From Candidatus Tayloriibacteriota bacterium (GTDB lineage Bacteria; Patescibacteriota; Minisyncoccia; Phycocordibacterales; PALSA-1337), in assembly GCA_943350765.1 (NCBI GenBank), contig CALRAJ010000002.1:7994-71993 (forward strand): a stretch of DNA of 64,000 bases. Direction: 5' to 3'. Positions within the stretch are counted from its first letter, which is position 1. Every line of letters starts with the position of its first letter. The notes beneath the pieces were generated by a model that made no database searches, had not been told where the DNA came from, and saw only the letters and a list, made by a program, of their open reading frames with translations. This document shows positions 4,093 to 56,621 of this stretch, piece by piece. The translations under genes and the position numbers were made by a program.

Positions 4093-5839
4093 TACCGTTC
4101 AGTAATTTCATCAGAAAGTGGTTCTCAGGTTGTTTTGTCCACCAGAGGTGTAGTAATGAAGCCAAAAAAGAGACTTTGGAGCCCATTTCTCCCACCAGAG
4201 GCGTAGAAGTAACCCTCTAAAAGGGGGTTCGCAGGCGGGTAGCCGAGACTTCAGGAATTTTCTAGTAAGAAAATATCCGTACCCTTTTAGAGGGTTTACT
4301 TCGTAACCCTTGACTATTATAACCATTCATATATACTACTCCTACCCTAATCGAAACAGGGGTGTTCTTTGAAACTGTGCCAAAATAAGTTATGCATTAA
4401 GAACGTAGTTTAAACGAAGTCGTTTAATACGTGCAAGTCCCTGTAAAGTATTCAACAAGCATATTTTACGGGTGAGTCTAAAAAGTTTAGGAAAGTAGAA
4501 TCTTCGCAGTCGGCGCCCTTCTTTGTTGCAAGCTCCGTTCGCTTCCGCAATGTATTAGTATACATTTTGGTCGCGATACTCGCTCGCGCCTCGAAGTGCA
4601 TCCAACTACAAAGATTCTATGACACACATTTATAACAATAATTTCAAGAGCATAGACAAACTCTAATACAAAGCTTCGGCGGAGTAGTAATTATTTGAAA
4701 ATCAAAGTATAGAATATTTTTCTTTATTTTGTTCCGTTCATTTAATTTAGAGTTTGATTCTAGCTCAGGATGAACGCTGGCGGCGTGGGTAAGGCATGCA
4801 AGTCAAACGGCCCGCAAGGGCAGTGGCGAACGAGGTAGTACAAAGTAGGTAACGACCCTGGAAGTCAGGAATAACTAGTCGAAAGATTAGCTAATACTTG
4901 ATGGTCTCGCGAGAGTAAAGATTTATCGCTTCCAGATCGGCCTGCTCGATATCAGCTAGTTGGTAGGGTAATGGCCTACCAAGGCAATGACGTCTAGGGG
5001 AGCTGAGAGGCTGACCCCCACCGATGGTACTGAGATACGGACCATACACCTACGGGTGGCCGCAGTCGAGAATCTTCCGCAATGGACGCAAGTCTGACGG
5101 AGCGACGCCGCGTGATCGATGAAGTTCTTCGGAACGTAAAGATCTTTTATGAGGGAGAAAGTTTATTGATAGTACCTCAAGAATAAGGGGTTGCTAAACT
5201 CGTGCCAGCAGCAGCGGTAATACGAGTGCCCCAAGCGTTATCCGGAATTATTGGGCGTAAAGGGTGTGTAGGTGGTTTTGTTAGTCTCTTGTTAAACCTC
5301 CCGGCTCAACCGGGAAGATGCAAGGGAAACGGCATAACTAGAGGATGCGAGGGGTCTGTGGAACTCATGGTGTAGCGGTGAAATGCGTTGATATCATGGG
5401 GAACACCAAAAGCGAAGGCAGCAGACTGGAGCACTCCTGACACTGAAACACGAAAGCGTGGGTAGCGAATGGGATTAGATACCCCAGTAGTCCACGCCCT
5501 AAACGATCTTCTCTGGTTTTTCGGAGTATCGACCCTCTGAGAGACGAAGCTAACGCGTTAAGAGAAGCGCCTGGGTAGTACGACCGCAAGGTTAAAACTC
5601 AAAGAAATAGACGGGGACTTGCACAAGCGGTGGATCATGTGGTTTAATTCGACGATAAACGAAGAACCTTACCAAGATTTGAAACCTAGTTGAAGACAAG
5701 AGGAAACTTTTGTCGCCGCAAGGCAATTAGGCAGGTGATGCATGGCCGTCGTCAGTTCGTGGTTTGAATTGTTCCCTTAAGTGGGGTAACGAACGCAACC
5801 CTCGTTGCCTGTTATATATGTCAGGCGAGACTGCCCTCG

Positions 5840-5969
5840 ATTTTGTTCGGGAGAACAAAATCGAGTCGAAAGTAGAAAGTCAAAAGTACACAGTCGGATG
5901 CAAGTGCATCCACTCGGTACTCAGTACTTTCGACTTTTGACTCCGATTTCGATCGCTCGTGATCAAAAT
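5840..5969 (+). other. About 130-nt insertion in the loop of 16S helix 40 (IVS/expansion-segment type)
   Basis: Lies between GAGACTGCCCTCG and CGAGGGAGGAAGGCGAGGATGACG, where E. coli has about 7 nt. The insert is a nested hairpin (CTCGATTTTGTTC/GAACAAAATCGAG; GGATGCA-AGT-GCATCC) and its ends pair (CTCGATTTTG ... CAAAATCGAG). Confidence 0.6.
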
Positions 5970-6099
5970 CGAGGGAGGAAGGCGAGGATGACGCCAGGTC
6001 AGCATGTCCCTCTGATATCTTGGGCTACACACGTGATACAATGCCCGGTACAACAGGTTGCAATACCGCAAGGTGGAGCCAATCCTTATAAGCCGGGCC

Positions 6100-6136
<37 letters not shown>

Positions 6137-6198
6137 CCGGAATCGCTAGTAATCGCAGGTCAGCTATACTGCGGTGAATACGTTCTCAAGTCTTGTAC

Positions 6199-6615
6199 TC
6201 AAAATTAAAAGCGCCAGGCAGGTGCTGAATCTAGGTTGTTAAAATCAACCCTTTCCGAATACAATACAGGAGAGTAGTGAACGGGTAATCATTTGGTCGC
6301 GAGGCTAAGTGATGAAGGATCCTAGTAGCAAAAAGCAGCCCATTCAAAAAAGAGGGATACGACCCATATGGTGAGTTATGGGGAAGTATCGCAAATAACC
6401 TCGAATGGGATGCATGGAATAGAATCAGTACTGACCCTTGGGAGATCTCCTGATATGAAAAACAATCGAAGTATCAGTAGAAGTCAGCTGCGTCGTAGTA
6501 CCCATTTTTTATGATGGGGAAGGACAAAACCGATAGTGTTAAAACTATTGGACTCGCGTAGTGCGGGAAATCCGCTCGCTACGTGGGAACGCAAAATGTT
6601 GTTTCATTATTGCAA
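6199..6615 (+). other. About 415-nt ORF-less insertion in the 16S decoding-centre region (putative self-splicing intron)
   Basis: Interrupts the universally conserved CTTGTAC|ACACCGCCCGTCA block (E. coli about 1397-1400). No ORF over 60 aa; must be removed for a functional 16S. Boundaries are approximate. Confidence 0.5.
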
Positions 6616-6938
6616 TCCGCCCGTCAACTCAAGGGAGTTGGGAATACCCGAAATCTCTGCCTAGCAGGGCCTAAGGTAAGCTCAATGACAGGGAGTAAGT
6701 CGTAACAAGGCACGGGTAGCGGAAGCTGCTCGTGGATTATTTCAATTTGAACACGGTGTACAGTTTCTTCGGAATCTGTATTACCTTAAATGGTCTTTTG
6801 TCATTATTTTGGTGATAGGGTAATGGTTCTGCAACCTCAAATGCGAACCCTCAGCCATGAGAGAGGAATGGCGCAGGTCGGTATCCTCTATAGAGATACT
6901 GACCGGTGAACGGAACAAAATAAAGAATGATATTAAAG

Positions 6939-6967
6939 AAAAAACCGCCTGAAGGGGCGGTTTTTTC
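6939..6967. terminator. Rho-independent terminator downstream of 16S (AACCGCC-TGAAGG-GGCGGTT plus TTTTTT)
   Basis: GC stem with A-run before and T-run after (bidirectional form). Confidence 0.6.
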
Positions 6968-6997
6968 TTGGTTAAATCAATATGAATTATACTAGGT

Positions 6998-7143
6998 ACC
7001 CCAAATTACAAAATGCCTTTCTCGGCATATCTTTTAAAAGGCACGGATAAATTTCTGCTGAAATTTTCCTCAAGTCTCGACTACCCGTCTTGCGAAGTCC
7101 TTTTAAAAGATACACCTGCGACAGCATTTCGTAATTTGGGGTA
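6998..7143. mobile_element. MITE-like palindromic element, copy 1 (TIR CCCCAAATTACAAAATGC ... GCATTTCGTAATTTGGGG)
   Basis: About 145-bp element with 16-18-bp terminal inverted repeats and an internally self-complementary core (GGCATATCTTTTAAAAGG / CCTTTTAAAAGATACACC). Homologous copies at 9316, 32702, 38892 and 52181. Confidence 0.7.
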
Positions 7144-7326
7144 GACAGAGTAATGCGGTTGCGAATATTTTTTAAATTAAGATAACTTCCGCTATTGTTT
7201 TTCTGACATTTTTTTGCTATAGTCTTTTTGTTGTCTGGGTAGTGATAGGTTGTAGATTGCTGGCCCCGAGAAGATTACTCCTCGGGACGCTGCATTTTGC
7301 AGCCAAACCTGGGGTTTGGGCAAAAT

Positions 7327-7400
7327 GCGCGCATAGCTCAGTTGGTAGAGCACATCACTGATACTGATGGGGTCCTAGGTTCGAATCCTAGTGCGCGCAC
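7327..7400 (+). tRNA. tRNA-Ile (anticodon GAT)
   Basis: Manual cloverleaf: acceptor GCGCGCA/TGCGCGC, D-arm GCTC-AGTTGGTA-GAGC, anticodon stem CATCA/TGATG with loop CTGATAC (anticodon GAT), T-arm CTAGG-TTCGAAT-CCTAG, discriminator A. CCA is not fully encoded. Confidence 0.9.
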
Positions 7401-7500
7401 CTTAAAAGAACTAATTTGTGACTGTTTGGTACGGATTTTATAACTAAATTAAATCTCATACCTAGTATGGATCGTTCTCGCTAGTCGTCTAATCTAGATC

Positions 7501-11687: not shown

Positions 11688-13727
11688 ATGAATGAAGACG
11701 AAAATAAAATTACTTACTTCGGACAAACGGACGCTCGTAATAAAAAAACTCCGTTTGGTATAAAACGAAAAGATCGTTCTAAACACACCTATGTTATTGG
11801 TAAAACAGGTATGGGTAAATCAACCCTGCTTGAAAATATGGCAGTGCAGGATATTCAAAATGGGGAGGGTCTAGCTTTTATTGATCCTCACGGCAAGACT
11901 GCTGAGCTTCTTCTGGAATATATTCCCGAACATCGCATAAAGGATGTTTTGTATTTTGCACCTTTCGATATGGAGTACCCAGTTTCGTTTAATGTTATGG
12001 AGGATGTGGGTGCAGACAAGAGGCATCTAGTGGTAAACGGTCTCATGAGTACTTTTGAAAAGATTTGGGTAGATGCTTGGTCTGCTCGCATGGCATATAT
12101 TTTAAATAATACACTACTAGCACTTCTTGAGTATCCTGGGGCTACACTTCTCGGTGTAAACAGGATGTTGGCAGATAAAGACTATCGAAAAAAGGTGGTA
12201 GATAATGTTACCGATCCATCAGTGAAGTCGTTTTGGATTGATGAGTTTGGAAAGTATACAGAGCGTTTTGCGGCTGAGGCAACTCCCGCTATTCAAAATA
12301 AGGTGGGGCAGTTTACCTCAAATCCGCTGGTGCGAAATCTGATCGGTCAGCCAAAGTCATCCTTTAATATTCGCCAGATGATGGACGAGAAAAAGATTTT
12401 GATTATCAACCTATCGAAAGGTAAGGTGGGAGAAGGGAATGCTAATCTTATTGGTAGTATGCTCATTACCAAAATCTATCTTGCAGCAATGTCTCGAGCA
12501 GATCTCACAGAGCGAGAACTAAAAAAATATCCCAATTTTTATCTATATGTAGATGAGTTTCAGTCCTTCGCCAATAAGTCCTTTGCCGATATTCTGTCCG
12601 AAGCACGAAAATATAAACTAAACCTAACTATCGCCCATCAGTACATTGAGCAAATGGAGGAGGAGGTGCGTGATGCAGTGTTTGGAAATGTTGGCACAAT
12701 GGTGGCTTTTAGAGTAGGTGCCTATGATGCAGAGGTGCTTGAAAAGGAATTCGCTCCACATTTTACATTGGAGGATATTGTAAATCTTGGCGTATATCAG
12801 ATATATTTAAAATTAATGATTGATGGAGTGGGATCACAGCCATTTTCAGCAACTACGATGGCACCTATTAGGTTACCAAGTATTTCTTATAAAAATGAAA
12901 TTATCGAAAGTTCCAGAAAGCTTTTTGCACAGCCGAGATCGGTAGTAGAGGAGGAGATAAAACAATGGCATGAGCAGGAGCGTGTGGGTCCGAGTAAGCC
13001 ATCAGGTGGAGGGCGTGTAGGAGTGGATAATTCAGCCAGTACCAGTCTATCTAAAGGCGGAGGGAGTGTCGGTCAGGTCGCTATCGTATCTAGTGGTGAT
13101 ATAACGCAACCCATTACTCCAATACCACCCTCAAAAACTGTCGTTCAAAAAGTAGAAATCAAAAAAATAGAAAAAATAATTATAAAGGAACCCCTAGTAG
13201 CCCTTAATTTAAAAGATGCGTTAAAAAATATAGTTTTAGGTGCATCCGCGAGCAAGTTTGTTGGGGTTGAAAAACCAAAACCACTTCATCAGATGGTCTC
13301 AACTTCAGCGCCAAATCCTACAGGATATACGGTTGTATCATCTTCTTTAAATGCACCTAGTCATGATCGTGAAATGGATCTTCGTCGTGCGGTTTCTTTG
13401 GATTATTTAAAAAAAGCTCCACAGCAACGCGAGCCTAAAAATCAACCAGGGGGAAAGCCTGTGAGTCAAAAGAATATTGATGATTTACGATCGGCACTTG
13501 CTTCGGTTATGGGTACAAGTTTTCCTTCAAAAAAGTCAGAGGAATCGACCGCTCCATTGGCGGAGCCTATAGTTAAACATCCTAAACCTATCACAGCAAA
13601 TCCTTCCCAAACCTATTCAAAGTCTTTGGAAAAGCCGGTACCAGAAAATAAAAATACAGCAAAGGTAGAGTTGCGTGAAGTACCTGAGGATGTACTACGA
13701 AAAGTACTCAAACTCGATGAAAAGTAG
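11688..13727 (+). CDS. TraG/VirD4/TrwB-like P-loop ATPase (type IV coupling-protein family) with about 260-aa disordered Ser/Gly/Pro/Lys-rich C-terminal tail
   Basis: Walker A VIGKTGMGKSTLL; FYLYVDEFQSFANKSF...ARKYKLNLTIAHQYIEQM resembles the T4CP Walker B/arginine-finger region; low-complexity C-terminus. Confidence 0.5.
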   Translation: MNEDENKITYFGQTDARNKKTPFGIKRKDRSKHTYVIGKTGMGKSTLLENMAVQDIQNGEGLAFIDPHGKTAELLLEYIPEHRIKDVLYFAPFDMEYPVSFNVMEDVGADKRHLVVNGLMSTFEKIWVDAWSARMAYILNNTLLALLEYPGATLLGVNRMLADKDYRKKVVDNVTDPSVKSFWIDEFGKYTERFAAEATPAIQNKVGQFTSNPLVRNLIGQPKSSFNIRQMMDEKKILIINLSKGKVGEGNANLIGSMLITKIYLAAMSRADLTERELKKYPNFYLYVDEFQSFANKSFADILSEARKYKLNLTIAHQYIEQMEEEVRDAVFGNVGTMVAFRVGAYDAEVLEKEFAPHFTLEDIVNLGVYQIYLKLMIDGVGSQPFSATTMAPIRLPSISYKNEIIESSRKLFAQPRSVVEEEIKQWHEQERVGPSKPSGGGRVGVDNSASTSLSKGGGSVGQVAIVSSGDITQPITPIPPSKTVVQKVEIKKIEKIIIKEPLVALNLKDALKNIVLGASASKFVGVEKPKPLHQMVSTSAPNPTGYTVVSSSLNAPSHDREMDLRRAVSLDYLKKAPQQREPKNQPGGKPVSQKNIDDLRSALASVMGTSFPSKKSEESTAPLAEPIVKHPKPITANPSQTYSKSLEKPVPENKNTAKVELREVPEDVLRKVLKLDEK

Positions 13728-29905: not shown

Positions 29906-29956
29906 GTAGGTAGGAAAATAAAAAGAGGCTACCGAAGTAGCCCCGTGTGTTTGTGT

Positions 29957-31780
29957 CTATCCTGTCATGTCGAGGATTCTCTCGGTCTTGTCAGAATCGA
30001 TGTATCCACGAGCCTCGAGGAACTGCTCCTCGGAAAGCTCGCCGTAGTTGAGTGGCTTGCCGTCAGTGCCGTGAAGCACCTTGGTGGCGTCGTCGAGCTC
30101 AAGCACGTATTTTCGCAGATACTCATCCACGACTGGTTCCAGCTTGCAACCAGCTTTTTGTGCAAAGCTGATTCCGAAGTGCTCACCCAGTAGCTCTTGG
30201 ACTTTTGGGTGTCGGCACATCTGAGTGCCCGGGTAGGCCGTAGCAGTAAACATCCTCTTGTTGACGGATGCTACCGCGAGGTCGTAGTCTGGTGTGCCAG
30301 GAGTTTTGCCTCGAGTCATCTCGCCGATCTGCCACATGATAAATGCGACGGAGGTTTTGATTTCGCGAAGGCCTTCTTCTGGCCACCCCATGATCCATGT
30401 GCAGTTGGCATGAATGCCGGTTTCCTTGCACATTTTGATGCCGTTCATCATGGTGACGGGGAAGCGGTGATCGCCGACTTGCGTCAGCTGGTTTTCCCTA
30501 CTTCCTCTCGGTCGCAGGATAAACCCACCTTTTCCCATGCTTTCAAGCACTCGAGCGCTGGCACTTTCGGCACCGAAGCCGATGTAAATGCATCCGGCCT
30601 TGGCCATATAGCGCGCTCGGTCGTCCGCTTCGTCGAGGCGTGTGTGTGTGCCCCAACGAATACCCAAACCCTCGAATGTCTCAGGTAGGGCTTTCATGCG
30701 TGGAATGTTGACCCCGAAGTTGTCGTCGGGGAAGCCGAGGAAGTCAATCCCGTAGGTCCTGATCAGCCATTCGGCTTCGGCGCGGAGATTTGCAGGACTG
30801 CGCATACCGTAGTTGCGCTCACCCTGTCCTCCCCGGAAACAAAACTCGCAGGCGTAGGGACAGCCTCGGCTGGATACTGTCGTAAGGCTTCGTTTCATCG
30901 TAAACGATGTTGCGGAGCTATTGTTGGCAGCAGTGCCCCAGACAGGCGTTTTGATATACCACTCGAGCAGAGGATTTCCATGCACATCTTCGTGCAGGAG
31001 GTCCCATGCGGCAAATGGTAGCACATCCAGGTTTACAGGCCGGTCGCCCGCATACATGAGTCGGTGTTGTCCGCCGATTTCGCCCAAGTAGTAGGGGCTA
31101 TTTGACAGGAGGGAAAGATTCTTTCTCCCCCCGCGCTCTTTCAGGTGGTTGATCTCCTTTGCCATGAGCAAAATAACATCATCTCCTTCGGAGTGGGCAA
31201 CAGCATCGAGCTCAGGGATCCAACCAAAGAGTCCTTCTCGGATCTCAGTCGCGAGACCTCCGCCAGACACGAGAAACGCACCGGGCTGGAGCTTGCGACA
31301 AATCCTGGCAAAGTTTTCTTGCCAGCGGAGCGTAGTGATCATGCCTGAGAAGGCAATAATATCCTGATCGCCGTGTTTGGCGAGGTGAGCCTCGAGGAGC
31401 TGTTCGGCTTCCTGGAGCTTGAGGTGTCTACCGTTTGGCAAGCCACGTGCCATCGCATCTGCGTCCTGAAGCCGGTAGGCATTCAAGTCGAGGATGGTAG
31501 GCTCAGCTCCGTATTGACGAAGCCGTGCTGCCATAAGCCCCGGTCCTTGCGGAGGGGTGTTTGGCTTGGCACTTTCGCGCAGGGGCATGTTCACAAACAG
31601 CACCTTGACGCCTGTGAGTTCGCCAAATGTGAGTCTGGCAACCTGTGCGCTGGGGTGATCCAGCCCGACCAGCCGGCTCAGCTTGAGCTCGGGTGGTTTT
31701 GTGACTAGGAGGTTTGTCATGTCTACATTACCTTTCTTGGGTTGGTTTTGAGTGTGAAAAGTGGACGACAAATTGTTCAA
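29957..31780 (-). CDS. B12-binding-domain radical SAM enzyme (class B)
   Basis: CxxxCxxC (SSRGCPYACEFCF) preceded by a Rossmann-like cobalamin-binding-type N-domain (VLFVNMPL...GPGLMAARLRQYGAEPTILDLNA). GC-rich, unlike flanking genes. Confidence 0.75.
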   Translation of the reverse strand: MNNLSSTFHTQNQPKKGNVDMTNLLVTKPPELKLSRLVGLDHPSAQVARLTFGELTGVKVLFVNMPLRESAKPNTPPQGPGLMAARLRQYGAEPTILDLNAYRLQDADAMARGLPNGRHLKLQEAEQLLEAHLAKHGDQDIIAFSGMITTLRWQENFARICRKLQPGAFLVSGGGLATEIREGLFGWIPELDAVAHSEGDDVILLMAKEINHLKERGGRKNLSLLSNSPYYLGEIGGQHRLMYAGDRPVNLDVLPFAAWDLLHEDVHGNPLLEWYIKTPVWGTAANNSSATSFTMKRSLTTVSSRGCPYACEFCFRGGQGERNYGMRSPANLRAEAEWLIRTYGIDFLGFPDDNFGVNIPRMKALPETFEGLGIRWGTHTRLDEADDRARYMAKAGCIYIGFGAESASARVLESMGKGGFILRPRGSRENQLTQVGDHRFPVTMMNGIKMCKETGIHANCTWIMGWPEEGLREIKTSVAFIMWQIGEMTRGKTPGTPDYDLAVASVNKRMFTATAYPGTQMCRHPKVQELLGEHFGISFAQKAGCKLEPVVDEYLRKYVLELDDATKVLHGTDGKPLNYGELSEEQFLEARGYIDSDKTERILDMTG

Positions 31781-31843
31781 AGAGCGTTCGTCCGTATAAA
31801 ATAGTACTCAATTTTCTATATAAAGTCAAGTCATTGTTGTCGG

Positions 31844-32701
31844 ATGGTCTCTATGCTATTCTCAGTAATATATATGAATAATTTATTTTCACTCAAAGGC
31901 AAAAAAGTCGTACTGACCGGAGCGGCAGGCTTTTTCGGGACATACTTTGCCGAGGCACTTCTCTCGGCAGAAGCAGATAAAGTTTTCTGTGTTGATGTGA
32001 GTGAGCCAGGACTCGCTGATCTAAAAAAGCGCCTTGGCGCAAGTTCTTCAAAACAAGTCGAGTATGTTGTACTAGATCAAGGCGATCAAAAAATGGTTGC
32101 AAAAGTATTTGGCAAGCTGGCTGAGCATGGTGTGGATGTCCTCATCAACAATTCTTTTGTCTTTGGCGCACCGACTGGCTTTGCTCCAGCTCGAGGCCGT
32201 ATCGAAGACGCTACCTTTGAACAATTACAAAAATCTTTTGAATCTGGAATTTATTGGTCTATACAGGCTACACAGATTTTTGCCGAGGCAAGTAAAAAAA
32301 GCGACAAGCCATTGTCTGTGATCAACCTCGGCTCAATGTATTCGGTAGTGGTACCAAGTCCGACACTCTACGAAGGTTTTGATTATTACAACCCGCCCGG
32401 CTACAGCATGGCAAAGACCGGTCTGGTCGCGTTTACAAAATATACTGCCGCGTGGATGGGGCCACTCGTGCGTGCGAACATTCTCTGCCCAGGTGCTATT
32501 CCAAATGATGAAAAGAAATCGGCGAACTCTGAACAAAATAAAAACGATGCGTTTCGACAGAGAATGATTGATCGCACGGCACTCAAGCGTCTCGGACACC
32601 CAAATGATCTCGTAGGGACGGTGGTTTTCCTAGCTTCAGATGCTTCCAGCTATATTACGGGTCAAATGATCGTGGTGGATGGGGGATGGACTATTGTGTA
32701 A
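31844..32701 (+). CDS. Short-chain dehydrogenase/reductase (SDR); true start possibly 31874
   Basis: TGAAGFFG glycine motif; catalytic YxxxK (YSMAK). Confidence 0.8.
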   Translation: MVSMLFSVIYMNNLFSLKGKKVVLTGAAGFFGTYFAEALLSAEADKVFCVDVSEPGLADLKKRLGASSSKQVEYVVLDQGDQKMVAKVFGKLAEHGVDVLINNSFVFGAPTGFAPARGRIEDATFEQLQKSFESGIYWSIQATQIFAEASKKSDKPLSVINLGSMYSVVVPSPTLYEGFDYYNPPGYSMAKTGLVAFTKYTAAWMGPLVRANILCPGAIPNDEKKSANSEQNKNDAFRQRMIDRTALKRLGHPNDLVGTVVFLASDASSYITGQMIVVDGGWTIV

Positions 32702-32878
32702 ATAGCCCAAATTAGGAAACTCTTTCTCGGCGTATCTTTCTAGGAGTACGAATAAATTTCTGGTGAAATTTATCTCAGGTCTCGACTCCCGTCCTGCGCC
32801 GTCTACAGGAACACATCATCTACCGATGTGAAAGCCCCCTATAAAGATGTGTCTTCGACGAATTTCCTAATTTGGGCT
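32702..32878. mobile_element. MITE-like element, copy 3 (variant; TIR TAGCCCAAATTAGGAAA ... TTTCCTAATTTGGGCTA)
   Basis: Same TIR core and internal CTTTCTCGGCGTATC / CCGATGTGAAAG segments as the remnant at 52132. AT-rich insert inside the GC-rich island. Confidence 0.6.
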
Positions 32879-33029
32879 ATTTGCCTTGGTTGTTTACTGT
32901 GGATTATTGTGTATATGACATGTGGTCATTCTAATACCTTGAGTGCATCCAAGCTATTGAACCATTACCCGGTGGTATTGACTTTATTTGCAAATGGGTG
33001 TATAATAGGTTTTGGTCTGTTGGCGGTAG

Positions 33030-33647
33030 GTGCGGTCAAACAAGCTCTCTTATATGAAAAAACAATACTCGGAAACGCTCCTAGCGAAAGCTCGGAAGAT
33101 CAAGGCGGTTGTTCTCGACTGCGACGGCACTCTGACTGACAATACGGAGGTGACCGGTCTCGACGCGCCGTCTGCACACGGTTTGCTGAAGAGGCGTAGT
33201 CACTACGACGGTCAGGGCGTGTCCCTAATTCGAGCTGTGGGAATCCCTGTTGCGATAATTACGGGTGAAAAAGGTCCCGGCGCTCAGATGATTACCAAGC
33301 TCGTTGAAAGGTGGAACGGTCTGCCCTCTGTTAAAAATCGTGCATGGATACAAGTCGCTCTCTTCACCGGATATGCCGGCGAGGAAAAAGTTCTTAAGCT
33401 CCGCCAGTGGCTGAAGACAAACCAACTCACTTCTGAAGACTGCGCCGTGATGGGGGATGACCTCGTCGATGTGCCGATGCTTCGCGCAGTCGGATTTCGT
33501 GCCTGCCCGATTACCGCAGAAGAGGTAGTGCGGGAGATGGCCGACTTCATCAGCGACCGTCCTGCCGGCTACGGTGCAGTGCGTGATCTGGCAAACCTCA
33601 TCCTCACAGCTCGTGGTATTGATCCCACGACCCTGCCGACCAAGTAG
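33030..33647 (+). CDS. HAD-IIIA KdsC-like sugar-acid phosphate phosphatase
   Basis: VVLDCDGTLTD (DxDGT), ITG, MGDDLVDVPMLRAVGFRACPITAEE, AGYGAVRDLANLILTARG; classic KdsC/KDN-9-P phosphatase pattern. Confidence 0.75.
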   Translation: MRSNKLSYMKKQYSETLLAKARKIKAVVLDCDGTLTDNTEVTGLDAPSAHGLLKRRSHYDGQGVSLIRAVGIPVAIITGEKGPGAQMITKLVERWNGLPSVKNRAWIQVALFTGYAGEEKVLKLRQWLKTNQLTSEDCAVMGDDLVDVPMLRAVGFRACPITAEEVVREMADFISDRPAGYGAVRDLANLILTARGIDPTTLPTK

Positions 33648-33789
33648 GCTCGCTGGCGGTCCCAATAGTTTCCTCGCGTACCCTGAGTTTCTCGGGGTAT
33701 TTTTATTTTAAAATAAATCGCTGACCAAATCTGTACAAGTCCTGTATAGTATGATAGTGTGATTCTCGGTAGCTTTTTCCCAAACAATT

Positions 33790-34743
33790 ATGAGCAACAA
33801 AACAGTTCAGATCGGACCTTACGAGGTCGGCGGTAACAATCCGTGTCTGGTGGTGGCCGAGATCGGCATCAACCACAACGGATCATTGGAGTTCGTGAGT
33901 CGTTTGATCGACATGGCGGTGCTGGCGGGGTGTGGTGCTGTTAAATTTCAGACCCGCTCTGTGGATGTCGTCTATACGGCAGAGGAGCTGGCAAAGGCCA
34001 GGGCTGTACCGACAGATGTGGTTCAGCACGCTCTCATGCGGAGTGTTTTGCCTACTGAGGCAATCAGTCGCCTCGGAAAAGACATCACCAACACAACCAA
34101 CGGCGACCTCAAGCGTGCCCTTGAATTTAGCGCGGAGGACTACAGGTTGATCGACGACTACTGCAGGACCAAGGGTGTTATCTGGTTCTCTTCCCCTTGG
34201 GACGAGGCCTCGGTGGACTTGATCGAGCAGTTTAATCCTCCGTGCTTCAAGGTGGCTTCTGCGTCGCTTACCGACCGGGGACTCCTTGAGCGCATTGCGT
34301 CTTATGGGCGTCCGGTGATTCTCGGCACAGGCATGTCGAGCATGGATCAGGTCCGCAAGGCTATTGCTGTGCTTAACGGTGTGCCGGTGATCTTGAGTCA
34401 TACGGTCTCGACTTATCCGGCCAAGCGGTCTGATCTCAACCTGCGTGCCATCCATACCTTGCAAAAGGAGTTTGGTGTACCGGTCGCCTACAGTGGTCAC
34501 GAGAATGGCACGACCATGTCGGTGTGTGCGGTAGCGCTCGGTGCGTGCATGGTTGAGCGACACATCACCCTCGATCGGACCATGTTCGGCAGTGATCAGT
34601 CAGCCAGTCTCGAGGCGGTCGGTCTCACGACCATGATCCGCAATATCCGCGATCTCGAAGGTGCCCTAGGCACCGGCGAAAAGCAGATTCTCGATGCCGA
34701 AAAGCCGATTGCTGCCAAGCTCCGTCGCAAGGACACGCTCTAG
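33790..34743 (+). CDS. NeuB-family nonulosonic acid synthase (no C-terminal SAF domain)
   Basis: VVAEIGINHNGSLE...GCGAVKFQT, ILGTGMSSMDQV, HTVSTYP, SGHENG, MVERHITLD; matches the NeuB/PseI/LegI TIM-barrel motifs. Confidence 0.8.
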   Translation: MSNKTVQIGPYEVGGNNPCLVVAEIGINHNGSLEFVSRLIDMAVLAGCGAVKFQTRSVDVVYTAEELAKARAVPTDVVQHALMRSVLPTEAISRLGKDITNTTNGDLKRALEFSAEDYRLIDDYCRTKGVIWFSSPWDEASVDLIEQFNPPCFKVASASLTDRGLLERIASYGRPVILGTGMSSMDQVRKAIAVLNGVPVILSHTVSTYPAKRSDLNLRAIHTLQKEFGVPVAYSGHENGTTMSVCAVALGACMVERHITLDRTMFGSDQSASLEAVGLTTMIRNIRDLEGALGTGEKQILDAEKPIAAKLRRKDTL

Positions 34744-34766
34744 GCCTAGGCTTGTGGTTGGTACAA

Positions 34767-40570: not shown

Positions 40571-41842
40571 ATGAGTAAAGATATAATTACACTATTAAAT
40601 AAAACAAAGATTGATCACTCATGGTCTTTTTCTGATAAGACAAGAAAGGACACGGCGTATATTACGCATGGTTATCATCGCTACCCAGCAAAGTTTATTC
40701 CTCAAATAGTCTCTCGTTTGGCAGAAAAATACACCCGAGAAGGAGATTTTATCGTTGATCCATTTGGTGGGTGTGGAACGACACTCGTTGAATCAAAAGT
40801 TATGGGGCGACCATCAATTGCTGTTGATATTAACCCTGTTGCAGTTTTGATAACAAAAGCAAAAATCACCCCAATTAACCCCGATAAAATTGAGAAAGAA
40901 TTTGCAACACTTCAGAAGAGATTAGAAACTTATAACGAAGATACAAAAGTCAAAGCACATGAACATGAACGGATAGATTATTGGTTCAAACCCGAAAATA
41001 AAAGGAAGCTCGCCTTTATCTTTACCGAAATTTCAAAAATTAAAGATCAGGATGTTCAAGACTTTTTCTTTTGTGGATTTTCAAATATTCTCAAAAATTG
41101 TTCAATATGGTTACAAAAAAGCAATAAGCCGACGAGAGATTTTGAAAAGAAACCGTCAGATCCAATTAAAACTTTTTTTAAGCAAATAAAAATGATGTTG
41201 CGTGGCAACACACGACTATTTGAATTATTATCAGAGAAAGGTTATTTGAAAATTCCAAGCAAGGTAGTTTGTACGGACGCAAGGACAATTCCAGCAAAAG
41301 ACAATAGTATTAGCTTGATCGTTACCTCTCCGCCATATGTTACCTCATACGAATATGCCGATTTACACCAACTTACTGCATTATGGCTAGAATATACAAA
41401 GGATTTGAGTGATTTCAGAAAGCGTTTTATTGGCACTTCATATCACAGTAAGAAAGATTTGATACTCAATAGTTCAATCGCAGAAAGTATCCGAAAAGAA
41501 TTGCTGGAAATAGACAAAAAGACTGCCGAAGAAGTCTCAACATACTTCAGCGAAATGAATCAGGTTTTTGTTGAGATGGAAAGGATACTCAAGAAAGGAG
41601 GAAAAACGTGTATTGTTGTCGGGAACACGAGCCTGAAAGGTGTTAAAATACTAAACGCCGAGGTTTTTGTTGAACAATTACAAAATTTAGGACTGAAAGT
41701 CACGGATGTTATCAAAAGGGAAATACCTTCAAAAAATTTACCCTCAGTGAGAGATAAAAAAACAGGCAAGTTTGCAGCGATAACGGATAAAAATAAAGTT
41801 TCCGCATATCCAACAGAATATATATTAGTAATGCAAAAATAA
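40571..41842 (+). CDS. DNA methyltransferase (N4-cytosine/N6-adenine family, SPPY type)
   Basis: HRYPAKFIPQIV...GDFIVDPFGGCGTT (SAM-binding motifs X-I), catalytic SPPY (LIVTSPPYVTSYEYAD). Confidence 0.8.
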   Translation: MSKDIITLLNKTKIDHSWSFSDKTRKDTAYITHGYHRYPAKFIPQIVSRLAEKYTREGDFIVDPFGGCGTTLVESKVMGRPSIAVDINPVAVLITKAKITPINPDKIEKEFATLQKRLETYNEDTKVKAHEHERIDYWFKPENKRKLAFIFTEISKIKDQDVQDFFFCGFSNILKNCSIWLQKSNKPTRDFEKKPSDPIKTFFKQIKMMLRGNTRLFELLSEKGYLKIPSKVVCTDARTIPAKDNSISLIVTSPPYVTSYEYADLHQLTALWLEYTKDLSDFRKRFIGTSYHSKKDLILNSSIAESIRKELLEIDKKTAEEVSTYFSEMNQVFVEMERILKKGGKTCIVVGNTSLKGVKILNAEVFVEQLQNLGLKVTDVIKREIPSKNLPSVRDKKTGKFAAITDKNKVSAYPTEYILVMQK

Positions 41843-41846
41843 AAAT

Positions 41847-42530
41847 ATGACCAAACAAGATATTGTTAATTTATATGAGAGGTATAAGAAATTACATGGA
41901 AATAATGCCTTCAAACATATTTCTGCAATTTTAATTGAGGCAAAAGGACTTCACAACAAAGATTTTTTGAAAAATCCAACCCCAAAAGGTGATCATGAGC
42001 AATCATGGAAGGGTTTCAAAGGTAGTGCTTTAGAGACATTAATTGATCATGTCTTAAAAGAAGAAGTAAATAGTTTGGGGTTAAATATTGTATCAGGAAA
42101 AAAGTTTGAAAAAACTAAGCCAGAGAATTTATCGATAGAATTGCAGACTGTTAAGAGAAATCTTTCTATTGATTTTGGTGAATTTGGTTTTCATATACCA
42201 GATGTTGATCTAGTAATATATAATCCAAAAACCTTCAAGGTCGTTGCTGTTTTATCAAGCAAGTCGACTTTGCGAGAAAGAATAGCCCAATCAGGTTATT
42301 GGAATATAAAAATTAAGAACTACGATTTAACAAAACATATTAAGGTGTTTTTTGTAAGCCCAGATGAAGACGGTAATTTTTCTCTCGGAAGAAATCTTGG
42401 AAAGAGTAGAGCGATTGTGGAAACAGATCTTGATGGAGCATATGTTATGACAGAGCAATCCGTTAGAGAAAGTGAGAAAGTCAAAACATTTGATAAATTT
42501 ATTGATGATCTTAAAAAACTTTTGAAATAA
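41847..42530 (+). CDS. Hypothetical protein, candidate restriction endonuclease by context
   Basis: 227 aa between two DNA MTases; possible PD..D/ExK-like residues (IPDVDLVIY...SSK) but not convincing. Confidence 0.3.
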   Translation: MTKQDIVNLYERYKKLHGNNAFKHISAILIEAKGLHNKDFLKNPTPKGDHEQSWKGFKGSALETLIDHVLKEEVNSLGLNIVSGKKFEKTKPENLSIELQTVKRNLSIDFGEFGFHIPDVDLVIYNPKTFKVVAVLSSKSTLRERIAQSGYWNIKIKNYDLTKHIKVFFVSPDEDGNFSLGRNLGKSRAIVETDLDGAYVMTEQSVRESEKVKTFDKFIDDLKKLLK

Positions 42531-42534
42531 AACT

Positions 42535-42933
42535 ATGGAACAATTACTTTTACAACTTGGGTTAGGAATTGCTTCAAACACGATGTATGATTTTTTGAAG
42601 GATTTTTTCACTAAAAATTATAAACCTGATAGATTACAATTACAAAATAAGCTAGCTTCTTTTCTTGATGTTCAAAACGCCAACATAATAGCCGATAAAA
42701 TTATTACTTTTTTGGCTCAGAATGGAGATATAAGAATTAATGGAACGAGTATTTACGCTAATGATTCAATTTCTATGTCTTCCACAAAAAACACAAAATT
42801 TACTTTTGGAAATAATAGTTCCAGTACAACGAAAAATACAAAAATAGAAGTTGGTAATGGTGCTTTCATTCAAGGACAAGGCTGTGCAGGAATAAAACAA
42901 AATGACGATGGCAGTATTAATCTTTTTACTTAA
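42535..42933 (+). CDS. Hypothetical small protein with Asn/Ser/Thr-rich C-terminus
   Basis: 132-aa ORF tightly packed (4-bp spacers) inside the R-M island. Confidence 0.35.
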   Translation: MEQLLLQLGLGIASNTMYDFLKDFFTKNYKPDRLQLQNKLASFLDVQNANIIADKIITFLAQNGDIRINGTSIYANDSISMSSTKNTKFTFGNNSSSTTKNTKIEVGNGAFIQGQGCAGIKQNDDGSINLFT

Positions 42934-42936
42934 ATT

Positions 42937-43605
42937 ATGGAAATTGAATCAACAACACTTTGGGATTTTCCAAGACAGAATTATGGAGATACCCCACACG
43001 GAAACAATAAATATAATGGCGTTACCCCTGCGGCAGTAATTTGGAATTTGCTACAACGATACACCAAAGAGGGCGACTTGGTCGTGGATCCGATGTGCGG
43101 AAGTGGAACGACTATCGATGTTGCCAATGAATTGAAGCGTAAGGTTATTGGGTATGATCTTAATGTAACAAGACCAGAAATAATCAAAAATGATTCTCGT
43201 AAAATTCCGCTTGCTGACAATTCCGTTGATTTTATTTTCATTGATTCGCCGTATTCGGACAATATAAACTATTCCGATAATAAGGAGTGTATAGGAAAAA
43301 TATCTTGCGAGAAAACGGAATTTTATGATGAGCTAGAAAAAACCGCTAGTGAAATCGCAAGGATTTTGAAGCCCGGCAAAGCGATTGGTTGGGTAATCGC
43401 TGATCAATGGGTAAAGAAGAAATTTACGCCTGTTGGTTTTTTAATGTGGCAGAGATTAGAAAAATATTTTGAAACAGTCGATATGATTTGCCTCACTCGT
43501 CATAATCAAACATCAAATACGGGAATTTGGCACGAACGAGCAAGACAGTATAACTTTTATCTCAGAGGATTCAAGTATCTATTCATAATGAGAAAAGTTA
43601 AGTAA
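42937..43605 (+). CDS. DNA methyltransferase (short N4/N6 family, second MTase of the island)
   Basis: PAAVIWNLLQRYTKEGDLVVDPMCGSGTT (motifs X-I) and FIFIDSPYSD (motif IV variant); paralogous N-terminus to the MTase at 40571. Confidence 0.7.
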   Translation: MEIESTTLWDFPRQNYGDTPHGNNKYNGVTPAAVIWNLLQRYTKEGDLVVDPMCGSGTTIDVANELKRKVIGYDLNVTRPEIIKNDSRKIPLADNSVDFIFIDSPYSDNINYSDNKECIGKISCEKTEFYDELEKTASEIARILKPGKAIGWVIADQWVKKKFTPVGFLMWQRLEKYFETVDMICLTRHNQTSNTGIWHERARQYNFYLRGFKYLFIMRKVK

Positions 43606-43686: not shown

Positions 43687-43992
43687 ATGAACTCAACAAA
43701 ATTAATTTTAGTACTGGTGTTGCTAGGGGTACTGATTTGGCTGTATCGAAACAGGTCTAATGTCTGGCGACCAAATAGGGAACGGGTGTGGGCAAAATCG
43801 GAGCATAAGCATCAAGTGATGGAGCTGTTTTTATTGCCAGGTATGCGAGTGAAAAATGACGATGTACAGAGGCTGACTGGTGTTTCTGACGCGACTGCCA
43901 CAAGGTATCTAGATGAACTCGAAAAAGAAGGACTAATACGGCAGGTCGGGGTAGTAGGTGGGTATGTGTATTATGAGAAAATAGGGAAATAG
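43687..43992 (+). CDS. Membrane-anchored winged-helix DNA-binding protein
   Basis: N-terminal TM (LILVLVLLGVLIWLY) plus C-terminal wHTH-like RLTGVSDATATRYLDELEKEGLIRQVG. Confidence 0.45.
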   Translation: MNSTKLILVLVLLGVLIWLYRNRSNVWRPNRERVWAKSEHKHQVMELFLLPGMRVKNDDVQRLTGVSDATATRYLDELEKEGLIRQVGVVGGYVYYEKIGK

Positions 43993-44017
43993 CCCGAAGC
44001 AGAGCCATTTTATGAAA

Positions 44018-44105
44018 CGATGGCTCACTGGTCTGTAGTCGATGGCCCAGTGGTGTTTGGTCGATGGCTCACTGCTTTATAATACAAAGCAGTGAGCCAT
44101 CGACC
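44018..44105. repeat. GATGGCTCACTG-family repeat, right boundary of the R-M island (two half-sites plus 18-bp hairpin)
   Basis: CGATGGCTCACTGGTCTGTAGTCGATGGC...TCGATGGCTCACTGCTTT-ATAATAC-AAAGCAGTGAGCCATCGACC. Confidence 0.65.
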
Positions 44106-44272
44106 TCGTCTGGACTAAATTAAGAAGCTTTTTAGGTATCGGACAACTGATTAATTTTTAAAACAAAGTTTAGTCTCGTTCTATCCCCACGGCAAGCCGT
44201 CGGGGTATTCTCCACAATTAAAATAAAAATCCCCACGAGTGTGAGGAGTCAGGCTGTCGGATTGAGGAGGAA

Positions 44273-44578
44273 ATGGCGAAGTTTGACTGCCCGCTTGCCG
44301 ATGATTTGCTTGAGCCACTGTGCATTAGTGTCGGCACACTGCATGATGAGGAGGGCGTTCTGTTTGGTCAGACCGATCTGTTTGCTGGCTCGGTAAGTAG
44401 TATTCGTAGAAACAGTTCTCCGTACCCTGAATCCAACATTTGCGTTGGCGACAGCAGTGATTGGGCAATGGCAGGTGCATCCGTTTACTCTCCGACCAAG
44501 ACGTATAGAGGTACGGTTCGGGATGATGTGCCAATTACTCGTAAAAAGCTCTTTGTAAGCTTGTTTGAATTCGCGTAG
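44273..44578 (+). CDS. Ambiguous small ORF (101 aa) in a GC-rich 0.45-kb island; an alternative 111-aa ORF lies on the minus strand (44249-44584)
   Basis: Plus ORF preceded by GAGGAGG 5 nt before ATG, atypical for this genome. Minus ORF is followed by a terminator (CCTCAC-ACTC-GTGGGG plus T-run, about 44222-44246). The coding strand cannot be decided by eye. Confidence 0.25.
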   Translation: MAKFDCPLADDLLEPLCISVGTLHDEEGVLFGQTDLFAGSVSSIRRNSSPYPESNICVGDSSDWAMAGASVYSPTKTYRGTVRDDVPITRKKLFVSLFEFA

Positions 44579-44713
44579 TGTCATAAGTAATCCGTGCTGA
44601 GTTTTGTCGAAGAGCGTCCTACGGAGGTGTAGGACTCATTTAATCTAATACTACCAGAAATATGTACTATGTCAAGCCAGCCTAACCAGATTATATGCTA
44701 TAATAACCCCACT

Positions 44714-54070: not shown

Positions 54071-54149
54071 TATGGCTATGGTCGCGATAGGGTACTTTTT
54101 ATTTTTCTGGTATACTGAATATTACTTACTCATAGATTTAAAAGATAAA

Positions 54150-56190: not shown

Positions 56191-56615
56191 CTCCCTTTGC
56201 AAAGGGAGTACCCGTAGGGGGAGGGATTTGTATGAAATTAGTCTACGGTCAAAATTTAAAACCTCTTGCTCAAAACCTCAGGAAGTCAGGTAATCTTTCG
56301 GAGGTTTTGCTCTGGAATGAGATAAAATCGAAAAAACTGGGTGTTCAATTTTTAAGACAGAAACCTATAGATAAATACATCGTTGATTTTTATTGTAATG
56401 AACTCAGTCTTGCTATAGAGATAGATGGTGTGAGTCACGATGTTAAGGTTGATGCCGACACCAGAAGGCAAAATGTGTTAGAATCTAAGGGTGTACGATT
56501 TATTAGGTTCAGTGATTCAGATGTTAAGTGTAATCTAGAAAGTGTAGTAAGGGAAATCAAGGAATTTATCGAGAGTAAAAATCCCTCCCTTTCAGGTGCT
56601 CCCTTTAAAAAGGGA
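56191..56615. mobile_element. DUF559 endonuclease cassette bounded by about 39-bp imperfect terminal inverted repeats
   Basis: Left CTCCCTTTGCAAAGGGAGTACCCGTAGGGGGAGGGATTT; right AAATCCCTCCCTTTCAGGTGCTCCCTTTAAAAAGGGAG. Each end is a hairpin plus an 11-bp GGGAGGGATTT / AAATCCCTCCC inverted repeat. Confidence 0.5.
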
Positions 56616-56621
56616 GAATAA
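56232..56621 (+). CDS. DUF559 (Vsr/MutH-like fold) endonuclease-domain protein
   Basis: YIVDFYCNELSLAIEIDGVSHD, the diagnostic DUF559 block; the C-terminus reads through the right TIR. Confidence 0.7.
   Translation: MKLVYGQNLKPLAQNLRKSGNLSEVLLWNEIKSKKLGVQFLRQKPIDKYIVDFYCNELSLAIEIDGVSHDVKVDADTRRQNVLESKGVRFIRFSDSDVKCNLESVVREIKEFIESKNPSLSGAPFKKGE

Follow-up and report, generated by a model that had tools for sequence, protein, structure and literature searches.

Loss of the anti-Shine-Dalgarno core from the 16S rRNA of a Paceibacteria bacterium, with possible retention of a pairing between its 3′ tail and the trailer

The present study analyzes the 3′ end of the single 16S ribosomal RNA (rRNA) gene visible in a 64-kb stretch of contig CALRAJ010000002.1 (hereafter the window, by which the whole stretch is meant), the source of which is an ultra-small Paceibacteria/Parcubacteria bacterium (Patescibacteria, also called candidate phyla radiation, CPR). 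The Shine-Dalgarno (SD) interaction is the textbook route to start-codon choice in bacteria, and here a whole, diverse radiation is found without its rRNA half, the anti-SD core CCUCC. The evidence taken together makes it very probable that Paceibacteria 16S rRNA of this kind carries no anti-SD core and does not dock mRNAs by SD pairing, that start codons would instead be reached through leaderless transcripts or A/U-rich start regions, and that the tail has nevertheless kept complementarity to the trailer downstream of it. Loss of the anti-SD at the level of the clade is already known (PMC9297842) and the window is one more instance of it; the added value lies in the absence of a replacement SD, in a description of start-site signals, and in the compensatory evolution of the former anti-SD and the trailer.

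The 16S rRNA 3′ tail

The 16S rRNA gene occupies 4742..6747 on the forward strand, is interrupted by two insertions, and matches the Rfam model SSU_rRNA_bacteria with 1255.6 bits over model positions 1-1533. Both insertions derailed the global covariance-model alignment of the 16S, and the 3′ domain was realigned separately. In this local alignment to the same model, 6617-6734 scored 68.3 bits over model positions 1390-1520 (of 1533). The match ended at the last pair of helix 45, leaving the last 13 model positions (GAUCACCUCCUUU) without a counterpart. Helix 45 itself (6711..6734, forward strand) has 10 bp and a GGAA loop, CACGGGTAGC-GGAA-GCTGCTCGTG, its arms also being given as CACGGGUAGC and GCUGCUCGUG, and the sequence after it reads GAUUAUUUCAAUUU (6735-6748 being GATTATTTCAATTT, and 6735-6752 GAUUAUUUCAAUUUGAAC). 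The 3′ tail, GAUUAUUUCAAUU (6735..6747, forward strand), is the counterpart of E. coli GAUCACCUCCUUA and was read from the sequence, the covariance model stopping short of it. Position-by-position comparison with anti-SD-containing relatives (GATCACCTCC) places UUUCA (6740..6744, forward strand) where the anti-SD core CCUCC would be; relative to CCUCC, the U and C at tail positions 8-9, which we take to be E. coli U1537 and C1538, are kept, and positions 6, 7 and 10 are altered.

A string search found neither CCTCC nor its variants anywhere in 6600-7400, and the sole CCTCC of the rRNA region is internal to the gene, at 5297. The absence of an anti-SD from this 16S is real. The original prediction of a tail without CCUCC after helix 45 is thus confirmed both by the sequence and by the covariance-model alignment of the 3′ end, in which helix 45 aligned and nothing corresponded to the anti-SD. 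The prediction had also stated that no CCTCC occurs in the 250 nt before the terminator, which is correct as to the missing motif and wrong as to the distance, the terminator lying about 200 nt after helix 45. An Rfam scan of 6150-7000 at permissive E-values returned only the small-subunit 3′ domain, group-II-D1D4-1, and terminator-driven noise (RNAI, rimP), and is uninformative on the tail.

Integrity of the 16S rRNA gene

The first insertion, of about 135 nt (~5837..5972, forward strand, borders approximate), was delimited by BLAST matches to relatives that stop at 5834-5848 and resume at 5953-5975. Its sequence is made up of inverted repeats nested one within the other (5834-5853/5956-5975 and 5871-5894/5919-5942). 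Close relatives lack it, and a single weak homologue was found, in the related contig L183 (70% identity). The second insertion (6202..6616, forward strand, 415 nt) is intron-like and lies in the decoding-centre region of the 16S, between GUACUCA and CCGCCCGU at what we take to be about E. coli 1398/1399; its excision restores GTACTCA followed directly by CCGCCCGTCA, as in relatives. The Rfam model group-II-D1D4-1 matches within it (6447-6525, 39.6 bits, gathering score 35), and the Rfam scan found in it no match to group II domains D5/D6 (RF00029) and none to group I introns. At least 20 further 16S loci of Paceibacteria carry homologues of the second insertion, with a common 60-nt 3′ core (6541-6600; 95-100% identity). 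Part of this core is a bulged hairpin that begins CGC and is capped by GAAA. The insertion may be a member of a miniature group II-like intron family.

After removal of ~5837-5972 and 6202-6616 the 16S was collinear with intron-free relatives by BLAST. The gene is flanked by the two arms of a leader-trailer processing helix, of which the 5′ arm (4713..4740, forward strand, 28 nt) is 93% complementary to 6907-6934 and stops 2 nt short of the 16S 5′ end, and the 3′ arm (6907..6934, forward strand) starts 172 nt after helix 45; the motif of the helix, TTTTGTTCCGTTCA/TGAACGGAACAAAA, is conserved in relatives. The 172-nt trailer is normal for the clade, because the 3′ arm stands 85-210 nt after helix 45 in anti-SD-less relatives (93-300 nt in the anti-SD-containing ones sampled). 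Just before the processing helix the distal trailer (6822..6906, forward strand) is rich in hairpins and conserved, its identity to the trailers of 15 or more relatives being 72-86%, unlike the proximal trailer (6752-6821), which is not conserved. An intrinsic terminator (6936..6969, forward strand), made of a perfect 14-bp inverted repeat and a T run, closes a 16S-only transcription unit. No 23S or 5S gene was found within the 64 kb, and the 16S is therefore unlinked from the other rRNA genes. The 2,660 nt that span the 16S, trailer and tRNA-Ile are identical in ENA assembly ERZ27265268 and differ by 1 nt in ERZ27280192, and the segment from helix 45 through the tail to the tRNA is also present in ERZ27280191, where the contig ends within the 16S. 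Downstream of the terminator are a 56-nt imperfect inverted repeat (6986-7041/7099-7154), tRNA-Ile(GAU) at 7327-7401, and a pyruvate kinase gene.

It could be argued that this 16S is a pseudogene, or an artefact of assembly or chimerism, and that a functional rrs with a normal anti-SD is located elsewhere, given that only 64 kb of the genome are visible and that 23S and 5S do not adjoin the gene. This would not account for the full-length covariance-model score (1255 bits), the conserved leader-trailer helix, the identical sequence in independent assemblies, or the recurrence of this tail type in over 200 related contigs, among them the complete genome of a cultured species, and anti-SD loss has been reported for the clade (PMC9297842). 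Another explanation could be that the true anti-SD is further downstream, either beyond a third, unrecognized 3′ insertion or intron or within an extended mature rRNA. The 16S has two insertions already, 172 nt separate helix 45 from the processing helix, and a CCUCU is present at ~6890. However, the CCUCU sits inside a long local hairpin (6878-6906), no CCTCC lies between the tail and the tRNA, relatives free of insertions have a collinear and conserved tail, and long trailers are ordinary in anti-SD-less and in sampled anti-SD-containing relatives alike; no hidden 3′ intron carrying CCUCC was found. Because of the collinearity, the processing helix and the repeated assemblies, we regard both a pseudogene or chimera and a displaced anti-SD behind a hidden intron as very unlikely.

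Distribution of the tail in the clade

Relatives were gathered in two scans with the helix 45 core, the tail being left free: one of a single genome per GTDB species (the genome set, at least 119 loci), and a separate one of metagenome contigs (the metagenome set, 120 loci). Related contigs from both are labeled L001-L239. Among the matches listed, CCUCC was missing from 101 of 119 loci in the genome set, nearly all of them with exactly the helix 45 of the window, and from 116 of 120 in the metagenome set, or about 215 of 239 contigs with the helix 45 core. The helix 45 of the window, CACGGGTAGCGGAAGCTGCTCGTG, is common to these ~215 contigs, of which the named ones are overwhelmingly Paceibacterota, Parcubacteria or Patescibacteria, and among the retrieved loci those with the CACGGG...CTCGTG version of the helix have almost all lost CCUCC. 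Anti-SD-less loci of the genome set belong to Paceibacterota/Parcubacteria (Taylor-, Kaiser-, Nomura-, Lloyd-, Staskawicz-, Jorgensen- and Brennerbacteria, and Minisyncoccia) and include the cultured Minisyncoccus archaeiphilus PMX.108. Other forms of helix 45 (in Magasanik-, Uhr-, Moran- and Yanofskybacteria, among others) go with a retained GAUCACCUCCUUUC. By BLAST, the nearest 16S relatives of the window are two metagenome-assembled genomes, one of Paceibacterota (L099, 91%) and one of Taylorbacteria (L084, 91% over the compared part). The genes of the window are also typical of Patescibacteria, with SecDF, SecA, Obg, GatB, enzymes of glycolysis and the pentose-phosphate pathway, and a large glycosyltransferase cluster; no ribosomal protein genes were found in the 64-kb window.

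These results agree with published data (Tsurumaki et al. 2022, RNA 28:1041; PMC9297842), according to which no more than 48% of Parcubacteria had a detected anti-SD motif. The Parcubacteria without it overlap a group that lacks uL1, in which SD helices are thought not to form, and bS21 is often absent from Parcubacteria (PMC9297842). The window resembles the uL1-lacking subgroup in clade, as judged by 16S similarity and the helix 45 signature, in having no CCUCCU after helix 45, and in that SD helices are inferred not to form (PMC9297842). That paper gives the detection rate and the uL1 correlation only, and the present analysis goes beyond it in addressing what replaced the anti-SD, the retained trailer pairing, the absence of a compensating mRNA motif, and the leaderless and U(-1) signals; a search of the literature on Patescibacteria with SD, anti-SD or leaderless returned nothing else of relevance. 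Anti-SD loss had been described in the original prediction as rare in bacteria. This is true overall, with 128 anti-SD-less taxa among ~20,600 surveyed (Amin et al. 2018, PMC6107228, where Patescibacteria and CPR are not mentioned), but within this clade loss is the rule.

SD usage and the search for a replacement

Ribosomes with this tail would be unable to dock mRNAs by SD pairing, because CCUCC has become UUUCA, and the genes of the window behave as though this were so. Among the 56 called genes of the window, SD-like 4-mers (GGAG, GAGG or AGGA at -20..-4) occurred upstream of 3/56, compared with 9/56 in interior control windows of the same genes, and duplex energies are weaker for the canonical tail with upstream regions than with gene interiors. 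The prediction that no gene has a GGAGG-type ribosome-binding site (RBS) except an anomalous GC-rich open reading frame (ORF) at 44273 holds in its general sense and for that ORF, but a second strong site was missed. The ORF at 44273 (forward strand) does have GAGGAGG 4 nt before its ATG and is wholly antisense to the ORF 44249-44584 on the reverse strand. The single strong and well-spaced SD-like site, GGGGGAGGG, stands 6 nt before the ATG of 56232-56621, and it cannot act as an SD because the host is without an anti-SD. This gene encodes a DUF559/very-short-patch-repair-like endonuclease, a type of gene that is often mobile. The reverse-strand ORF 44249-44584 (111 aa) has no GAGGAGG-type site and lies in a GC-rich stretch with a perfect 17-bp hairpin (44065-44099) upstream of it. 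Neither ORF of the pair had a Pfam match and an Rfam scan of 43900-44750 found nothing meaningful; the pair may be foreign DNA.

The same motif count, run on the window genes and on the loci of relatives, showed no SD enrichment in the window and showed the relatives to be SD-poor as well. Anti-SD-containing Patescibacteria had SD-like 4-mers at 8/81 upstream and 8/81 interior positions. They had been meant as a positive control for SD detection and, being SD-poor themselves, leave the crude gene calling without a positive control from within the clade. Because the sampled Patescibacteria that retain CCUCC are equally SD-poor, disuse of the SD is probably older than loss of the anti-SD. The reading of obligately SD-independent initiation is supported by the missing anti-SD and by window genes that make no use of SD sites. 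Over the anti-SD-less loci as a whole there was a slight excess of 5-mer SD matches, 32/480 upstream and 17/480 interior, and in three of these loci (L047, L080 and L063) 3 of the 7-9 called genes are preceded by GGAGG or AGGAG. The slight excess could be due to chance, to mis-binned contigs, or to recently acquired genes.

A new tail might have co-evolved with a new SD, that is, an mRNA motif such as UGAAAUAAUC complementary to it, and a few upstream regions (11688, 42535 and 24038) do contain TTGAAAT or TGAAATAA. Against this, duplexes of the window's tail with the window's upstream regions are no stronger than those formed by shuffled tails (-2.73 vs. -2.58 ± 0.31 kcal/mol), nor stronger than duplexes of the tail with gene interiors. 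Over 191 anti-SD-less loci and 897 genes, a locus's own tail likewise bound upstream regions no better than foreign tails (p = 0.98), and a survey of 128 anti-SD-less organisms found no matching variant SD in any (PMC6107228). A co-evolved SD and anti-SD pair is accordingly highly improbable; duplex-energy tests of own tails against reversed, shuffled and foreign ones were all negative for an alternative SD.

Start regions and the route of initiation

Start choice without an SD could be made by leaderless mRNAs that begin at the AUG and by start regions that are A/U-rich and unstructured. In the window, GC content is 27% upstream of genes and 41% inside them, and folding energy has its minimum in strength at the start (-2.2 vs. 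-4.4 kcal/mol, p = 2e-5). A U immediately precedes the start codon (position -1) in 38/56 window genes (68%; p = 2e-7), in 47% of genes in anti-SD-less relatives, and in 63% in anti-SD-containing Patescibacteria, and is thus a Kozak-like context across the group, whatever the type of tail. A U at -1 is able to pair with A37 of the initiator tRNA and could in this way extend codon-anticodon pairing. In anti-SD-less relatives, a -10-like hexamer stands exactly 6 nt before the ATG in 41/479 genes, with mostly ~2-11 genes at other spacings and 17 each at spacings 8 and 9; judged from sequence, this peak is the signature of predicted leaderless transcripts. A -10 box 6-7 nt before the start codon is likewise the arrangement of leaderless genes in Actinobacteria, Deinococcus-Thermus and archaea, which differ in having kept the anti-SD and in using SD sites for internal genes.

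The tail-trailer hairpin

A candidate mini-hairpin (6741..6751, forward strand) would pair UUCA (6741-6744) with UGAA (6748-6751) across an AUU loop and is homologous to CUCC/GGAG in anti-SD-containing relatives. Where a tail has retained U8 and C9, a 4-mer lying 3-9 nt further downstream is complementary to its positions 7-10, and the same is true of relatives with CCUCC; the tail is in this sense more than arbitrary A/U-rich sequence. Among unique tails, the stem types were CUCC/GGAG (14), UUCC/GGAG (4), UUCC/GGAA (11) and UUCA/UGAA (39, including the window); UUCC/GGAG is a U.G intermediate, and one contig (L113) has CUCA/UGAG. Position 10 (A or C) was associated without exception with TGA or GGA downstream in the genome set (21/0/0/14, p = 4e-10 in a test that ignores phylogeny), and the association was replicated, with phylogeny again ignored, in 73 new tails of the metagenome set (26/0/0/5), which was fetched after the hairpin hypothesis had been formed. 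Full 4-bp pairing was present in 55% of tails, compared with 37% (maximum 47%) when partners were swapped and 8% when the downstream sequence was shuffled. A MAFFT alignment of the tails (A1) had put UCCA/UGGA variants out of register and was replaced by position-based counting and by a covariance-model alignment (A3); in the latter, which was fitted to the structure under test, the helix was 94% paired with 36 double-change cells, compared with 6.0 ± 2.1 in shuffles (0/500). The A-U and C-G stem types (UUCA and UUCC) were interspersed on a rough neighbor-joining tree. Loci with rRNA insertions gave long branches on this tree, and the apparent nesting of anti-SD-containing among anti-SD-less taxa is not trustworthy. 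Stem stability falls from -5.7 kcal/mol for CUCC/GGAG through -2.6 for UUCC/GGAA to +0.3 in the window, with -1.8 to -5.7 kcal/mol in relatives.

A possible explanation is that decay was stepwise, from CCUCC to UUCC to UUCA, with each step compensated in the trailer, from GGAG to GGAA to UGAA, and that selection would keep a pre-rRNA hairpin across the 3′ maturation site after mRNA pairing had been lost. Canonical bacteria have their mature 3′ end 3-5 nt after CCUCC; because this canonical end falls in the loop of the hairpin, the element may belong to the precursor. We tentatively propose, with somewhat less than even confidence, that in Paceibacteria a pre-rRNA hairpin under selection persisted after the anti-SD was gone and that the anti-SD segment thus had a second, older job. 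The compensatory link between the former anti-SD positions and the trailer may be a new point.

Alternatively, UUCA...UGAA may be no RNA hairpin at all, but a palindrome bound by a protein at the DNA or the RNA level, or a pattern that arose by phylogenetic accident within a small number of large sub-clades. This would fit with a stem of only 3-4 bp that is unstable in the window, with statistics that ignore phylogeny, and with palindromes being typical of protein sites also. On the other hand, the U.G intermediates UUCC/GGAG (4 unique tails) and UUCC...GGG (L134) make sense only as RNA, the A-U/C-G association was repeated in an independent data set, the two types are interspersed on the tree, and the same positions pair strongly in anti-SD-containing relatives (-5.7 kcal/mol). 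A protein site or an accident is for these reasons the unlikely explanation of the pattern.

Several observations nonetheless tell against the combined reading of a lost anti-SD, SD-independent starts and a retained tail-trailer pairing. With respect to the hairpin, that of the window is thermodynamically negligible (+0.3 kcal/mol), and RNAfold on the isolated tail did not predict it, its minimum-energy fold being another. About one third of anti-SD-less tails, of the A/U-rich GAUCAUUUUUUUAAAAAUG type that includes Minisyncoccus, have no hairpin in this register and at most a different A/U hairpin in another. The 16S 3′ end at 6747 was itself placed only by analogy with the 13-nt tail of E. 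coli. The Fisher tests of the tail-trailer association ignore phylogeny, the covariance-model alignment of tails leans towards the structure to which it was fitted, and the neighbor-joining tree, built from 641 columns, is rough, has no support values, and was used qualitatively only. With respect to starts, the leaderless signal is weaker in the window, where a -10-like hexamer at spacing 6-9 was found in only 7/56 genes, among them those at 54072, 51151, 43687, 36163 and 28925; gene starts were taken as the first ATG of long ORFs, a crude calling that blurs positional signals, and the anti-SD-containing comparison set is small (~80 genes).

Loss of the anti-SD and comparison with other systems

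Use of the SD was probably negligible already in the ancestors of this group, and the anti-SD would then have been free to decay, plausibly once other constraints on it were gone. Such constraints could have been autoregulation of bS21 and recognition of GAUCACCUCC by Era. Most CPR are without Era, which binds GAUCACCUCC (PMC10582724). Because Era is mostly missing in CPR and bS21 often missing in Parcubacteria, relaxed constraint is, by analogy, a plausible reason for the loss. The analogy is with Bacteroidia, where SD-blind Flavobacterium has kept CCUCC because bS21 (rpsU) autoregulation depends on it, as does 16S maturation, possibly via Era (PMC13000453). Bacteroidia (Flavobacterium johnsoniae, PMC13000453 and earlier work of that laboratory) resemble the window in genome-wide SD-independent initiation and in A-rich, unstructured start regions, but they have kept CCUCC and sequester it with bS21, bS18 and bS6; a sequestered anti-SD of this type does not apply here, CCUCC being absent from the sequence itself.

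Other bacteria in which CCUCC has been lost or strongly varied, with no SD enrichment and no matching variant SD, are Chryseobacterium, Elizabethkingia, Riemerella and Blattabacterium, Mycoplasma, Carsonella and Hodgkinia (Lim et al. 2012; PMC6107228). They differ in being unrelated lineages, mostly small groups or endosymbionts, whereas the present case is a very large, free-standing radiation. A short tail after helix 45 without CCUCC is also shared with eukaryotic 18S rRNA (GGAUCAUUA-3′) and mitochondrial 12S rRNA (the latter also in PMC10582724). The A/U-rich class of relatives begins GGAUCAUU, resembling the eukaryotic 18S end, and the window tail is GGAUUAUU; the likeness to 18S and 12S is convergent, not homologous. 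Start selection in eukaryotes and mitochondria is by scanning or by mitochondria-specific factors.

The clade shows what bacterial initiation looks like without the SD option, namely putative leaderless mRNAs, A/U-rich unstructured starts, and a U at -1. Gene finders that score an RBS should expect no SD sites in these genomes, and annotation of 16S 3′ ends that relies on CCUCC will fail in them. If the retained pairing is real, it bears on why SD-blind Bacteroidia conserve CCUCC, which could have a role in 16S maturation that is independent of mRNA binding; the hairpin might, for example, act as a processing determinant or mask immature 30S subunits. Since bS21 and Era are reportedly missing, the clade would then be a natural knock-out that separates the translational from the biogenesis roles of the 16S 3′ end.

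Other features of the window

Inside a cell-surface glycan cluster there is a GC-rich island at ~29950-34750, with 49-53% GC compared with ~38% around it, whose genes encode a B12-binding radical SAM protein, a short-chain dehydrogenase, a HAD hydrolase, and a NeuB-family sialic-acid-type synthase; the island was probably acquired horizontally. A type II restriction-modification cluster at 40571-43605 has a BsaWI-like endonuclease gene between those of two N4/N6 DNA methyltransferases, and a VirD4/TraG-like coupling ATPase is encoded at 11688-13727.

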